A stretch of DNA of 64,000 nucleotides from Octopus vulgaris (taxonomy: Eukaryota), in contig OX597814.1 of NCBI GenBank assembly GCA_951406725.2, positions 116,250,001 to 116,314,000 on the forward strand. Direction: 5' to 3'. Position 1 is the stretch's first letter. Every line of letters begins with the position of its first letter. This document shows, in pieces, positions 15,625 to 59,665 of this stretch. The notes under the pieces were generated by a model. It had not been told where the DNA came from, ran no database searches, and saw only the letters and a program-made list of their open reading frames with translations. The translations under genes and the position numbers were made by a program.

Positions 15625-15837
15625 CTATTAATATAGGATGAAATTTTTTTCAGAAAAAAATTTCATCAGAAAGTGGCAGCATATTAAAATACCTTTACAG
15701 CTTAAAATTATAAACAACTTATAAACAAGGTCAAAAGAAAACTTATTTCCATGCCAATGTTCTGATAACAGACTTTAAAGTCTGTTATCAGCATATTGGG
15801 ATGGAAATAATTTTTCCTTTGCCCTTGTTTATAAGTT
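15625..15837 (+). other. (TA)n-flanked motif-plus-hairpin cassette (hairpin 15716-15837)
   Basis: aggatgaaa..agtggcagcatattaaaa followed by a palindrome centred on gactttaaagtc. Confidence 0.8.
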
Positions 15838-16557
15838 ATATATATATATAAACATCTATACATGCACGAGCACACACACACGCACACACACACACACACA
15901 CACACACACACACACACACACAAACACGCACACTCACACACATATGTGTATGCATGTATTCGTTGTGTATATGGGGTTTAAATCCTAGCTTTGTCCTCTT
16001 GGAGCACATCTGTTTATTCCAGTATTCTAAATTCGTATATTCGTATGCACATACAAGCTGAACATTCTGGAAATTATGCTTTGTAGTGTGACAATATATC
16101 AAAACAGGAGAATGGAAAATATCTTGGTATTATTGATTTGCCATCACATACGTTTCATTTACTGATACGAGTTACAAGGTTATATAAGTAAGAGAAACCT
16201 GTAAAATGCCTCCTATTAGAAATCTTGAGACAGAAAATCAAATGGTAACAGTATTATTTGATTCTCTGTCTGAAAAATTTCCAATAGGAGATATCTTACA
16301 TGTTTCTCCTACACGTACAACTTCGAATTCCCTATTAGCAAATGAAACATGTATACATGTAAATAAATAATACCAACATCTATATATATGAAATTGTCAG
16401 TGCAACCGCACAAATTTTACGAGTAGAATCTAATATGCCGGTATTTTATGTTTATAATTATATCCTTAAATATTGTATCAGGGTTTAACACTTCTTTTTC
16501 GTAGGTATATTGCTTTATTATGGAGAGCAATTTTGCATAGAATATGCTAGAGAGTCA

Positions 16558-16693
16558 AGACTATTGAAAATGTTGCAAGACGCAACGAAAATTTTAGGAA
16601 AATAAAAATAAGAAATAAATGGAAATTTTACCGGTGAGTGTGTTAAATTATAAGGCACAAAAAGAAAATGACTTTCTCCAGACACAACAGAAT
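16558..16693 (+). mobile_element. Truncated copy of the MITE at 33946-34152
   Basis: agactattgaaaatgttgcaagacgcaacg...ccagacacaacagaata nearly identical to 34014-34151. Confidence 0.85.
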
Positions 16694-17609
16694 ACTAGAG
16701 AAAATTGTAGTTCTGGGGAAGAAGGACTGGAGTTTCTACGTAGTATTTACTTTGCTAACATCATCTGGTAAGGGTTTCACAAAGAATGGAATTGACAGAT
16801 GTTAGTCGATTATATATATGTTAGTCTGAAAAGAAATTGCTTCCTAACATTGGTATTGATGCTGTCTCAGAGTCTGAAAAGAGTTAATGATAAAATGTAT
16901 TATGGATGATATACAGAGTTTTATTTGAATACAATTGGATTATTTCACCAATCAATGTGAATATTTTTCTAGTGCAGGATGAATTTGTACTTTATGTACG
17001 ATCAGTGCCTGCATCGAACTGAAATATTTCGTAATTCTGTCATCACCTTGTCCTGTGGAAAAGTTATGGCAAACACAAAGCTTTGGTATTTTGAAGGAAT
17101 ATTATATATTATTATATTTGAAATAATATTCGATAAGGAACCGTCTCTGTATCTCACATCTACTAAAGTTGTTAATCAGTAAACAGTGAGACGCCGTTTG
17201 TATTTAATATCTTGAGATTTGAGTTTCATACTAATTGTAATCTATAATTTATGCCTCCTAGCATTTATCGCTGTTGTATTATTGAATTTTTTTTATTTCT
17301 GTCTGGCTTTCATTTTAATATATCTATATTTACAGAATCACTACGCTATGATTTGACGTAAGAGAACACAGCACTAGTAAATATGAGCGCAGGATACTGA
17401 CATGAATACACATTCACATATTCACATATGATAATATACATGTATATGATATATATATATATATATATATATATATATATATATATATATATACATACAT
17501 ACATACATACATACATAGATATATACATACATATATATGTATATGCATATATGTATATATATATATATATATATATATATATATATATATATATATATAT
17601 ATATATATT

Positions 17610-17927
17610 TCAATTACAATAAATGAGGATAAAACTTTTCTTAAAAAATTTTATGAGTGGCGAGCGTATAAAATGAAACCGATTAAGGTGAAAAATTATA
17701 TGTATAATTATAACAAAGGCTTAGAAAAGAAATTTTCTAGCCTATTTGCTGAGAAACAGACACTATATCGTTTCTCTATTCAAAGAAGTCAGAATTAGAT
17801 GTGCTGAATTCATGTGTCAAATTCAGCACATATGTTTGTGACTTCTTTTAATAGTGAGACGATTTCGTGTCTATTTCTCAGCATATAGGCTAGAAAATTT
17901 ATTTTCTAAGCCTTTATTATAATTATA
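17610..17927 (+). other. (TA)n-flanked motif-plus-hairpin cassette (hairpin 17703-17927)
   Basis: aggataaaa..ttttatgagtggcgagcgtataaaa followed by a ~225 bp imperfect inverted repeat. Confidence 0.85.
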
Positions 17928-18349
17928 TATATATAAATATATGTATTTTGTTAAATTATTCAGCATTCAACCACGGATGAGAACAATATTAGACTGTGGT
18001 TCGTGGAGCGAACATACTGTGGTCTTTGTTGGGCGGTGGACTGAACATGTGCAAGGATGACATATGTATGTGAATGTGCTGTTTTATTTCAAGATTTCAT
18101 GCCAATTCATAAAGAGCCGGTTTCTAACCTAGATCCAAGTCTCCTTTATTGGAATGTAAACATCAACAACAAGGTATTTTTGTACGTATGTATGTATTTA
18201 TGTATATATGCATGCATGTATATATATATATATATGTATGTAGACTGTGCAGCACCTCACGCTTTTAATAATAATAATAATGATAATAATAATAATAATA
18301 ATAATAATAATAATAATAATAATAATAATAATAATAATAATGATGATAA

Positions 18350-57340: not shown

Positions 57341-57744
57341 GAAGTATATGCATGAAAACACATGCGTAAAACAAAACATACAAATCTGCACGTATACATA
57401 CATAAGTACGTACATACATACATACATATATGTACACACACACACATATACACACACAAACACACACACGCACACACATATATATATATATATACATATA
57501 CATATTATATACATACATATATATATGTATATACACACATATATATATACATATACATATACATGCATACATACACACACATACACACATATGCATACAC
57601 ACACATGCATATATATACATACATACATACAGACATACATACATACATACATACATACATACACAGACATATATACATATATATATATATGTGAGTGTGT
57701 GTGTGTGTGTGTGTGTGTGTGTGTGTGTGTGTGTGAGTGTGTGT

Positions 57745-57945
57745 GTGTCTGTGTTTGTCCCCCGCCACCGCTTGACAATCAGTATTGGTGTGTTTAAGTA
57801 CCGGTAACGTAGTGGTTCAGCAAAAGAAACGATAGAATAAGTACTAGATTTACAAAGAATAAGTCTTGGGGGTTGATTTCTTCGACTACAAAAAACACTT
57901 TAAGGCGGTGCTCCTGCATGGCCGCCGTCAAATGACTGAAACTAG
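57745..57945 (+). mobile_element. SINE family C 3' half
   Basis: tgtgtttgtccccc..gatagaataagtactag..ggcggtgctcc.gcatggccgc. Confidence 0.75.
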
Positions 57946-59133
57946 TAAATCTAGTAATGTCTTTCATTTGGAATATTTCGCAATTTTTATATGTTTCACC
58001 TCGTGTCATAGGATGAGACTGCATGAGCTTAAACCAGATTTAAGGCTTTGCAAACCTTCTCTTTTGCTTTCAAGATATGCAGTTAAGGAGAGGTATCTCA
58101 CATGACTTCCTTGCATTAGCTTCGATTATATTTTGCTATGATTTTCTATTAGAAAATCTTCATGGAAATCTGCGAAATTAGAATATAACATTGTTATTTT
58201 TGTCATATTCCACAGAGCTACTGAAGCGTCACTATTCGTGAATTGAAATAAAGGGCTCGTATGATGTTGTTGAAGTAGATACCTGCATCTATAATCACGG
58301 AGGCAAAGAAATAATATCTCGACTATCACGTTTCCCTGCTACAAATTGCGGTTGAAATTTCTTTAATCGCATTCGTTGTATTAAAATGAAAAAAATACAT
58401 TGAGTAAAATAGTTTTACATGTCCTTTCTGCAATATGACGGAATTGTTGTTGGAAAGGCTGTGGGCATAGATTTTCTGGATACGGCTGGTATGCGATGTA
58501 AGTGCAAGAATCTGTTATATATTTGAATACGGTAGAGTGCCACAAACATATTACAGTAAGTTTCAAAAAAGGAAGAGGATTAACTGAGAGGAACCATACC
58601 ATTCGTAGGCAGATACATAAAATCTAAAAGCAATCATAGAAGGAATCTCCATTAAGCATAACCGATTCAGTATCTCGAAAGTAGAGGATATTAACTATGG
58701 GAGTGGATCTGGTAATTAGAGCCAACTAGTGAAATTAATGGACGTGTTTCAGACTTTTTATACCTCTTCACTTCAGTGGGACATATTCTACGTGGCTGGT
58801 AAGGCATGGTTCCGGGTTCAGTCCCACTGCATGGTACCTACTATATTATCGGGCCGACCAAAACCTTGCGAGTGGATTTGGTAGACAGAACGTGTAAGAA
58901 GCCCGTCTTATATATATATATATATATATATATATATATATATATATATATATATATATATATATATATATATATATATATTTGTTGAAATAGAAAGATG
59001 AATTTTCTTGTTACAGATTATTCAAAAGTTTAACCGATACCTGGGTAGCAAAAATCACAGCAGAAAAAAGCACGGTTGGAGATAAGACCATTTGGTGTTG
59101 CAACCGTGCGTTGGTGCGGATAATTGAAGTTTA

Positions 59134-59491
59134 ATATTATTAGTGAATGGAAGAAATGGAGTTGAACGAAGATTGTACAGAATTCCTTTTATTACATTCT
59201 ACACATGTTTCAAAGGCCACAAATTTCCAAATTCTTATTAAATAAGGGTAACATATTGTTCAGCCATGGGCTCTTAAGGAGCGTCCTCGTTCGAATTGCG
59301 TTGCTGCGCCTCTGTTTTGTTTTGTTCTGTCAACGGAATTCCTGTTTTTTCCTGAAGAGAAAGCCACAATACGGTACCCTTATTTAATAAGAATTTGGAA
59401 ATTTGTGGCCTTTGAAACATGTGTAGAATGTAATAAAAGGAATTCTGTACAATCTTCGTTCAACTCCATTTCTTCCATTCACTAATAATAT
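59134..59491. mobile_element. Element with apparently perfect 117-bp inverted repeats and a hammerhead overlapping the right arm
   Basis: 59134-59250 is the reverse complement of 59375-59491; ttc-CTGAAGA(59352)-gccacaa/ttgtggc-GAAAC ATGT GTA-gaa, AATAAA at 59432. Confidence 0.85.
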
Positions 59492-59511
59492 ATATATATA
59501 TATATATATTT

Positions 59512-59665
59512 ACAACTATAAGAGAGAATCCACATAGTGGATTCTCTCTTATAGTTGTGTATTAATAATATTTACTGAATCTCAGTCTTTTATACGCTAG
59601 GCCACTTGGTGTTTAAATTGGTGTTATTAAATTAATATCCAATTTTTTCTTATTTTGTCTTTAAT
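59512..59665 (-). other. (TA)n-flanked motif-plus-hairpin cassette (perfect 22-bp stem, 59512-59558)
   Basis: Minus strand ggata..agtggcctagcgtataaaa, then acaactataagagagaatccac-3 nt loop-gtggattctctcttatagttgt. Confidence 0.85.

Follow-up and report, generated by a model that had tools for sequence, protein, structure and literature searches.

Hairpin-bearing cassettes in (TA)n tracts of the Octopus vulgaris genome as probable truncated copies of non-autonomous Penelope-like elements

Cassettes and related insertions in the window

The window, the whole 64,000-nt stretch of Octopus vulgaris DNA analysed here, contains four cassettes with a shared upstream module, and a preliminary description had located both the cassettes and the module correctly. 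Strands of the cassettes are given below in the inferred RNA sense. Cassette 1 (15626..15837, minus strand) consists of a 5'-truncated copy of subfamily C1 plus an inverted truncated copy: 15631-15778 corresponds to positions 6-152 of monomer L109 (92% identity), and 15775-15844 to positions 152-83 of L109 in inverted orientation. Its one-sided tail (15626..15715, minus strand), which is the module of the preliminary description, includes a small stem-loop (15637-15667), AGTGGC at 15672 and an AT-rich word (15682-15689), and the monomer body supplies both arms of the 122-nt foldback (15716..15837, without strand). Cassette 2 (17610..17927, minus strand) is a truncated C2 copy plus an inverted one, with a tail at 17610-17702 and a foldback at 17703-17927; its arms match L063 4-192 (17613-17810, 81%) and, inverted, L063 199-83 (17813-17933). 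Cassette 3 (59512..59665, plus strand), of subfamily C3, has its tail at 59559-59665 and its foldback at 59512-59558, with 59523-59670 matching L038 157-9 (90%) and 59512-59547 matching L038 122-157; the turning point is a short palindrome within the C3 monomer. Cassette 4 (21474..21801, plus strand), of subfamily C4, has a tail at 21707-21801 and a foldback at 21474-21706, and its arms correspond to L123 204-1 (21594-21801, 90%) and L123 94-216 (21476-21598). The downstream hairpins had been described as having no common sequence; each is instead the body of its own subfamily, and the bodies of C1, C2 and C4 are distantly alike.

For cassettes 1 to 4 in this order, GGAT starts at 15636, 17627, 59640 (minus strand) and 21790 (minus strand), and AGTGGC or AGTTGGC lies at 15672, 17656, 59606 and 21760. 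The hairpins span 122, 225, 47 and 233 nt, with 54, 96, 22 and 103 paired positions (RNAfold) and self-BLAST E-values of 1e-43, 8e-72, 1e-12 and 2e-78; the sizes first quoted in bp are total lengths rather than paired positions, and the fourth span is the 233 nt given here. The TATA-like word (cassette 1, TATTAAAA; cassette 4, GTGAAAAA) precedes the first paired base by 34, 36, 36 and 47 nt, the first three distances being as first reported and the fourth having been given as 46.

A profile scan found three further module copies inside the window, at 32643 (minus strand), 51256 (plus strand) and 53084 (minus strand). A fifth member (32440..32643, plus strand; module score 27.5 bits), missed in the preliminary description, belongs to the young subfamily C5, whose anatomy is seen in loci L385 and L386, and comprises the module, a remnant of an inverted arm and, internally, a triplicated unit of 26-27 nt. 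The other C5-type insertions occupy the left arm (51241..51470, minus strand; 21.8 bits) and, as a mirror copy, the right arm (52870..53099, plus strand) of a large palindrome; the left-arm copy is carried by a coding PLE-like element in its 3' UTR. This coding element (47036-55778) is itself arranged head-to-head, with a one-sided tail of roughly 69 nt. The C5-type insert is present in 29 of 30 copies of its family, in the 3' UTR about 3 kb before the family end, and was rejected as the family terminus, being a passenger inside the 3' UTR.

The source superfamily, its module and its hammerhead motif

The source repeats form a dispersed non-coding superfamily with monomers of 460-570 nt, roughly 500 (C1 about 501, C3 532-537, C4 478-500 and C5 about 568 nt). 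Some copies extend beyond one monomer head-to-tail, with tandem periods of 532-537 (five C3 copies), 478-500 (four C4 copies) and 501 nt (one C1 copy), and these tandems are circularly permuted. The longest ATG-initiated ORFs in three natural monomers reach 30, 60 and 83 aa at a GC content of 0.31-0.33; an ORF combining a PLE reverse transcriptase (RT) with a GIY-YIG endonuclease is absent from the monomers and from module-linked sequence, and tblastn gave no PLE protein match continuous with the module among 204 module matches. The C5 copies are 97-99% alike across their first 75 nt. On either strand the whole monomer folds better than its shuffles (z -3.3 and -4.3), so that folding is uninformative on the strand. 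The C3 monomer, with its tandem joint, is covered by contigs of four presumed RNA runs, from which strand, start and circles cannot be read. The literature search listed no paper on this superfamily, and its subfamilies may carry anonymous names in Repbase or Dfam.

The unit order is (TA)n, tail, arm, junction, inverted arm and TA-rich flank, and both arms derive from one monomer, at 78-92% identity to natural monomers. A foldback is present in 69 of the 118 top-scoring family copies and absent from 49. The outer end of the inverted arm is fixed per subfamily (bands at monomer positions 80-96 in C1, 80-95 in C2, 105-117 in C3 and 90-107 in C4), falling inside the narrow band in 52/69 foldbacks and at position 1 in 5/69, while the inner ends vary independently. 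Within one subfamily, arms can be as short as about 20 nt or exceed 400 nt. At 39 of the 54 mapped junctions, counted by hand, the arm ends lie >20 nt apart on the monomer, and filler bases occur at 43/54. Eight of the 54 are symmetric within 1 nt, which is also compatible with snap-back priming of one cDNA. Microhomology of at least 2 nt was found at just 7/54, and annealing through it was rejected as the main junction route. In 4/30 C1 copies, the terminal 3-nt unit is repeated more often than the two times seen in the tandem template, as RT slippage would give.

The module is common to at least five otherwise diverged subfamilies (C1-C5), and a TA run adjoins the module-side junction in 86/118 copies. 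A loose genome pattern by itself gave modest enrichment (977 matches vs 691 in the control), and the module was judged by eye to be present in 17 of the first 30 loci that it retrieved. With a profile from whose building the test DNA was kept out, and a cut-off of 8 bits, 800 kb of unselected DNA yielded 17 matches vs 0 in the reversed control. Six of the 17 had a foldback with its outer arm 87-102 nt from the module start, compared with 6/150 (TA)n edges lacking the module (Fisher p = 2.9e-4), and the other 11 showed no such foldback inside 1.3 kb. The enrichment of foldbacks at a fixed distance from the module is thus greater than chance. The stem-loop in the module sits 10-25 nt from the fixed end, and its strand preference is weak (14 vs 12 rows; G-U 21 vs 11, p = 0.049; 3/31 rows left out). 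The module is likely the RNA 3' tail of the elements, with a conserved stem-loop.

A minimal type-I hammerhead motif was found in 35 of the 52 copies that reach its site on the strand opposite to the proposed promoter and in 0/52 on the promoter strand, the call being that of our own descriptor, loosened after a stricter version matched 10/52. This descriptor gave 40 matches in 800 kb, vs 5, 2 and 2 in shuffles and 3 in the reversed sequence. The motif occurs in all five subfamilies (in C5 via loci L385 and L386), and two matches lie one monomer (533-568 nt) apart at 4/138 loci (L038, L044, L045 and L386); C replaces U4 in 11 of the 19 C3 matches. The four window cassettes end before reaching the hammerhead position. 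Rfam at E <= 10 returned 113 matches on six family loci, mainly miRNA and snoRNA models on microsatellites and foldbacks, none of them to a hammerhead or tRNA family, and on the window it gave no match at the gathering score. Judged from its sequence, the hammerhead-like motif is a candidate ribozyme of the minimal PLE type.

Origin of the hairpins

At (TA)n targets, PLEs are known to leave truncated as well as tandem and inverted copies, which have a tail of 30-40 bp on one side (PMC8557442). Both DNA strands are cut and extended, and the tail is delimited by two internal start sites of the RT (PMC11167929). Their hammerheads are minimal, with a long helix II and a palindromic helix III (PMC4209133). 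The cassettes are truncated head-to-head copies of the 460-570-nt superfamily and very probably non-autonomous PLEs (non-LTR retrozymes) put into (TA)n by a PLE RT acting in trans. Because the cassettes were likely pasted into (TA)n by Penelope-type RTs, the hairpins probably arose as a side effect of the insertion and are unlikely to be hairpin-RNA genes, and the simpler alternative of the preliminary description, a non-autonomous retroelement that makes foldbacks on insertion, is the reading that our data support.

The proposed mechanism is as follows. A multimeric or circular monomer RNA, of the sense opposite to that first assumed, would be bound by a PLE RT/GIY-YIG protein, whose endonuclease would cleave both strands of AT-rich DNA. 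One DNA end could prime cDNA at the terminal site of the RNA and the other 84-108 nt further inside; both cDNAs would halt early and then be joined head-to-head. RNA lying between these start sites would be copied once, giving the module, and the sequence beyond would be copied twice, giving the hairpin. The 34-47-nt spacing would be what separates the AT-rich tail word from the second of these sites. As its cis-signal, the RT is predicted to recognise the conserved GCCACU-[stem-loop]-CCU with which the RNA ends on its 3' side.

RT + GIY-YIG PLE families of this genome terminate in (TA)n at either of two 3' ends, which are separated by 36-40 nt, and young families with open RT/GIY-YIG frames are present. 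The search for a partner, via PF01541, family searches and tblastn behind the 204 module matches, yielded coding PLEs, but the module matches beside them were separate insertions across TA tracts, so that these PLEs were rejected as autonomous partners. None of the PLE families inspected includes a coding element that terminates in the module, and the module profile did not match the ends of the inspected coding families. By eye, the module resembles the tail in two Neptune-like families and in the family at 24978, a likeness that did not convincingly pass a two-anchor shuffle test on six tails (uncorrected p values of 0.027, 0.053, 0.22, 0.58, 0.86 and 0.99).

Improbable is a dual use of the module, in which one strand would provide a structurally conserved RT-docking stem-loop between two initiation sites, distantly homologous to the Neptune-like 36-40-nt tail, and the other an antisense core promoter in C2 and C3, the subfamilies that keep TATAAAA. 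If so, head-to-head insertion would create thousands of dsRNA-hairpin transcription units that could feed endo-siRNA or ADAR pathways.

It is less probable still that the module is simply a Pol II core promoter firing into interchangeable dsRNA hairpins, that is, mobile hairpin-RNA genes supplying siRNA, miRNA or ADAR, as first suggested. The enrichment of foldbacks at a fixed distance past the module (6/17 vs 6/150) and the retention of TATAAAA by 25/29 C2 copies would suit such a promoter, and rotifer PLE pLTRs bear oppositely oriented promoter-like motifs and antisense small RNAs (PMC3846280). However, the hairpins are the element's own body folded at a variable apex, with long unpaired loops, and are lacking from 49/118 family copies and 11/17 unselected matches. 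TATAWAW is present in just 37/118 copies (C1 0/30, C2 25/29, C3 12/29, C4 0/30), and is thus no conserved TATA box, and the hammerhead is confined to the other strand. Arm mismatches over 69 stems are strand-neutral (G-U 141 vs A-C 148, p = 0.72), without the G-U bias expected of stems maintained as dsRNA on the transcribed strand. The same geometry of tail and foldback is formed without a module at 24978-25228 and by the coding element (47036-55778). The reading as a mobile hairpin-RNA gene system is not supported.

Non-autonomous Helitron or Helentron rolling-circle elements are an equally faint prospect. Their 3' termination hairpin could correspond to the stem-loop 10-25 nt from the fixed end, and terminator read-through to the partial head-to-tail tandems, and the insertion sites are AT-rich. 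Such elements depend on a Rep/helicase partner and have TC...CTRR ends or subterminal inverted repeats; here no CTRR terminus common to the subfamilies was found on reading the ends by eye, and no subterminal inverted repeats were seen. Also arguing against them, truncated arms that are joined head-to-head and begin at two fixed sites, and a strand-specific hammerhead in all five subfamilies, are to our knowledge not Helitron features.

SINE-like elements moved by a microsatellite-targeting LINE, with foldbacks from L1-like twin priming, are just as doubtful. The 5' truncation, fixed 3' end, terminal repeat reiteration and 3' stem-loop fit any target-primed RT. L1 twin priming yields an inverted part that represents another portion of the RNA, further upstream, whereas both arms here span one and the same portion, starting at a fixed second site. 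The circularly permuted tandems fit PLEs and retrozymes, as do the minimal type-I hammerheads, and Rfam gave no match on the window and no tRNA family on the six family loci. MITEs or foldback DNA transposons at TA, for which the long inverted repeats between TA tracts and the existence of TA-microsatellite-targeting Mutator-like elements (PMC4486113) could be cited, are the least credible and mostly refuted: terminal inverted repeats at both ends are lacking, length is not uniform (arms of about 20 to over 400 nt per subfamily), 49/118 copies have no inverted repeat and tandem monomers carry hammerhead motifs.

Under the preferred reading, insertion by a PLE RT, the superfamily accounts for a major supply of inverted repeats in the genome, from which dsRNA could form when a host transcript reads through. 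Scaled up roughly, the 17 matches per 800 kb would correspond to tens of thousands of copies, with a foldback in about one third.

Comparison with known systems

Drosophila hpRNA genes and natural shRNA cassettes are long inverted repeats at conserved single loci. The cassettes are similar to hpRNA genes in their long inverted repeat and potential dsRNA if transcribed; unlike them, they are many neutrally decaying insertions with a variable apex.

The elements resemble EN+ PLEs (Penelope/Poseidon, Neptune and Naiad; PMC8557442 and PMC11167929) in their 5' truncation, in the partial tandems and the truncated copy in inverted orientation, and in the one-sided tail, the (TA)n target and the minimal hammerhead. 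The elements differ in having no RT or GIY-YIG ORF and a tail of 84-108 nt rather than the 30-40 described there, and Naiads are described there as being without canonical hammerheads, whereas a minimal motif is found here. Non-autonomous Chlamys PLEs such as MRC1 likewise form pLTRs and head-to-tail multimers from non-autonomous units; they share 3' ends with autonomous families (PMC8557442), whereas here the module profile did not match the inspected coding-family ends and the two-anchor test gave p = 0.027 and 0.053 for two of six tails.

Classical retrozymes of roughly 300 bp are shorter than these monomers, whose hammerhead is of the minimal PLE type. The loci read contain at most about two units and no long arrays, and most copies stop before the ribozyme, many of them head-to-head with a one-sided tail, an arrangement not described in the retrozyme literature consulted. 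The retrozyme likeness is one of genomic sequence, circular RNA and cleavage belonging to the known retrozymes. Within this scope, the superfamily resembles metazoan non-LTR retrozymes (PMC7229834; bioRxiv 10.64898/2026.07.22.740005) in its non-coding low-GC monomers with one type-I hammerhead motif each, head-to-tail repeats, mainly dispersed copies and co-occurring PLEs, and the monomer length lies inside the 51-972 bp range given in the preprint. In the retrozyme literature consulted, PLEs are put forward as the probable mobiliser because they co-occur with retrozymes and have related pLTRs, and the mechanism is left open. In our case, ribozyme-bearing non-coding monomers show the PLE insertion fingerprint copy by copy, namely head-to-head arms that start at two fixed sites and are truncated independently of each other, and (TA)n targets, and together with the young coding PLEs in one genome this makes the PLE-retrozyme partnership testable in vitro with a defined 3' stem-loop.

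Module and downstream foldbacks

The positions of all four cassettes were confirmed in the window sequence (cassettes 1 to 4 at 15626-15837, 17610-17927, 59512-59665 and 21474-21801), and 4/4 began at a (TA)n edge and carried the shared module (GGAT followed by a small stem-loop, AGT(T)GGC and, last, an AT-rich word). The long inverted repeats after the module were 122, 225, 47 and 233 nt in cassettes 1, 2, 3 and 4, respectively, and lay 34, 36, 36 and 47 nt from the AT-rich word, close to the 34/36/36/46 nt of the preliminary description. The check suggested there, a profile scan followed by counting inverted repeats at a fixed distance, was run on part of the 2.8-Gb assembly (G000, with the window at G000:C1:116250001-116314000). 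The profile was trained on loci outside four arbitrarily picked 200-kb blocks, which provided 800 kb of test DNA (contigs C1:116314001-116514000, C2:50.0-50.2 Mb, C5:40.0-40.2 Mb and C10:30.0-30.2 Mb). At >=8 bits it gave 17 matches, the lowest two or three being doubtful, versus 0 in the reversed control. An outer foldback arm started 87-102 nt from the module start at 6/17 module matches versus 6/150 control edges (p = 2.9e-4), the controls being sampled from 822 (TA)n edges without the module. The association of the module with a downstream foldback beyond chance is therefore real, though no foldback of that kind was found at 11/17 module matches.

Monomers, hairpin arms and hammerhead-like motif

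Searches of the assembly placed each cassette in a dispersed repeat subfamily, named C1 to C4 after cassettes 1 to 4. First-look candidates numbered 1725, 147, 4886 and 2245, which are not copy numbers; 40 were scored per subfamily, and the best 30 loci of each, minus two duplicates (L057 and L075), formed a sample of 118 copies, including three of the window's own. Queries were cassette halves for C1, C2 and C4 and a 481-nt relative (L028) for C3, so the C3 sample is biased toward long copies. Head-to-tail monomer repeats were seen in long copies of all five subfamilies, with periods of 532-537 nt in C3 (5 tandem copies), 478-500 nt in C4 (4 tandem copies), 501 nt in C1 and ~460 nt in C2 (1 tandem copy each), and 568 nt in the fifth subfamily, C5.

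Mapped to natural monomers, the window cassettes run from position 1 to 152-204 and then reversed from 152-216 to 83-122; because both parts map to the same monomer, the hairpin is made of the body of the element itself. The proposal of interchangeable hairpin cargo without common sequence was thus not borne out: each hairpin is an inverted copy of its own subfamily body, and the bodies of C1, C2 and C4 are pairwise alike (alignable beyond 200 shuffles, p 0.005-0.01, over stretches including the ribozyme motif, which may contribute). The C2-C3 body alignment was not better than shuffles (p 0.22). A foldback was present in 69/118 copies, the outer end of the inverted arm falling in a narrow subfamily-specific band in 52/69 and at position 1 in 5/69. 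The inner ends were free, with arms ending >20 nt apart on the monomer in 39/54 mapped junctions, filler bases at 43/54 and symmetry to <=1 nt in 8/54. The own-body arms and fixed outer arm ends support the simpler alternative already offered in the preliminary description, a non-autonomous retroelement whose insertion generates foldbacks.

All subfamilies carry, at monomer 283-349 and on the strand opposite the presumed promoter, a hammerhead-like motif (C(U/C)GANGA, stem II, GAAA, palindromic stem III and UH, closed by stem I), with stem sequences varying between subfamilies; the four window cassettes end before this position. The descriptor matched 35/52 copies reaching the site on that strand versus 0/52 on the other, and had 40 matches in the 800 kb, whereas shuffled sequence gave 5, 2 and 2 and reversed sequence 3. 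A first, stricter descriptor had given 10/52 copies and 36 versus 0 in 800 kb, stem II being relaxed after its internal loops were noticed. C occupied position 4 in 11/19 C3 matches, paired hammerheads one monomer apart occurred at 4/138 loci, and Rfam models detected none of these motifs in the window and scanned loci. Minimal PLE (Penelope-like element) hammerheads have a long helix II, an unpaired base 5' of it and a palindromic helix III, and are predicted to act as dimers, with weak activity in vitro (PMC4209133); the motifs here match them.

The assembly is very rich in minimal type-I hammerhead motifs (40 versus 2-5 in controls per 800 kb), which belong to many unrelated families; some have a stem II of 50-60 nt, and Rfam was blind to the examples scanned. 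A 358-nt inverted repeat adjoining cassette 3 (59134-59491) contains a minimal hammerhead motif (position 59352, + strand) and is probably a further ribozyme-bearing element. At 3559 and 10003 (+), a common repeat contains a hammerhead-like motif that is very short, its stem II region measuring 12 nt; the family of this repeat is also present in the 800-kb sample.

Probable insertion by a PLE reverse transcriptase and the promoter reading

PLE insertions are 5'-truncated and form partial tandems; many carry an inverted copy, also truncated, together with a 30-40-bp tail on one side, and (TA)n tracts are often targeted (PMC8557442). At AT-rich sites, a PLE protein was shown to cut both strands of the DNA and extend them; cDNA begins at two internal RNA sites, the interval between them being the tail, without need of ribozyme cleavage (PMC11167929). 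In our case, one DNA end would prime cDNA at the terminal site of the RNA and the other 84-108 nt further in, and both cDNAs would end prematurely before head-to-head joining, which would leave the interval single-copy and the remainder as a foldback. A multimeric or circular template is implied by copies that exceed one monomer in length, and reiteration of the terminal 3-nt unit in 4/30 C1 copies fits RT slippage. The cassettes are very probably truncated head-to-head copies of non-coding repeats bearing a hammerhead-like motif, likely non-autonomous PLEs (non-LTR retrozymes) put into (TA)n by a PLE RT in trans.

A dual use of the module, as RT-docking stem-loop on one strand and antisense core promoter (in C2 and C3) driving dsRNA hairpins on the other, seems improbable; if true, it would turn head-to-head insertions into transcription units for long dsRNA hairpins. 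An antisense promoter may still act in C2 or C3; bidirectional transcription has been argued for in the pLTRs (PLE terminal repeats) of a rotifer (PMC3846280), and TATAWAW occurs in 25/29 C2 and 12/29 C3 copies. It is absent from C1 and C4 (0/30 each), so a conserved TATA box failed as a cassette-wide feature. Over 69 stems, 141 mismatches would be G-U on the presumed promoter strand versus 148 A-C (p = 0.72), as expected from neutral decay rather than from maintained dsRNA genes. On the features tested, the cassettes are not TATA-driven hairpin genes.

Coding PLE families, other foldbacks and known systems

A PF01541 search of the assembly gave 150 scored matches. Two young Neptune-like families (L181:906-4587 and L302), whose 781-aa and 775-aa RT/GIY-YIG frames are open in many copies, carry a linker Cys motif, RT and C-terminal GIY-YIG, and the linker motif suggests the Neptune/Nematis type. 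The 781-aa family has an extra 359-aa frame upstream without Pfam match. In contrast to the cassettes, it shows a TATA and repeated CCAAT-like and CRE-like words, the latter in the 3' UTR, on the coding strand ahead of its pLTR. Both families terminate in (TA)n with two alternative ends, ~40 nt and 36 nt apart, respectively, and a third coding family likewise has a (TA)n terminus with two ends. None of the coding PLE families inspected contained an element ending in the module. When the module was compared with six tails by two anchors, the uncorrected p values were 0.027, 0.053, 0.22, 0.58, 0.86 and 0.99, giving no clear likeness. Module matches adjoining PLE ORFs were rejected as PLE termini, since they had inserted separately into the same TA tracts, as was a C5-type insert as terminus of the window's coding family, being a passenger within the 3' UTR (29/30 copies).

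The ~9-kb palindrome at 46743-55778 (centre 51960-52574, arms 95-98% alike) is a head-to-head pair of that young coding PLE-like family, which has 150 scored matches at 95-100% in the assembly and a GIY-YIG segment on both strands at 9/30 loci. The element has a microsatellite-rich multi-kb 3' UTR and a one-sided tail of ~69 nt (55710-55778); close to its end, near 55647, lies a hammerhead-like motif. Its PLE assignment is weaker, because the protein had no Pfam match at E <= 0.001 and is 21-22% alike to those of the other families. A hairpin between TA tracts (24978-25228), with a one-sided tail of ~40 nt and without the module, has the same geometry, which is classical for PLEs; its family (1642 first-look candidates) differs from the C subfamilies. 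Further foldbacks at 16121-16379, 33942-34156, 32668-32918 and 13828-13931 likely represent other families and the same insertion process; 33942-34156 and 16553-16694 have 143 nt in common at 94% identity. A direct duplication (1-3735/6416-10179; 6.4-kb spacing, 97.5% identity) could be a true tandem duplication or one haplotype assembled twice; 3821-4778/10347-11304 are 99.6% identical.

Autonomous PLE and MITE were both rejected as classes for the C subfamilies. The literature searches listed no paper on the superfamily. In the accessible text of PMC7229834 and bioRxiv 10.64898/2026.07.22.740005, PLEs are the likely mobiliser of retrozymes, and no description of head-to-head retrozyme insertions with a tail was found. 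The C subfamilies agree with the non-LTR retrozymes of these sources in the sequence criteria and work like non-autonomous PLEs, with a tail that exceeds the published PLE length two- to threefold. This long tail, the 3' stem-loop common to diverged subfamilies and the putative minimal ribozyme appear to be their distinguishing traits.
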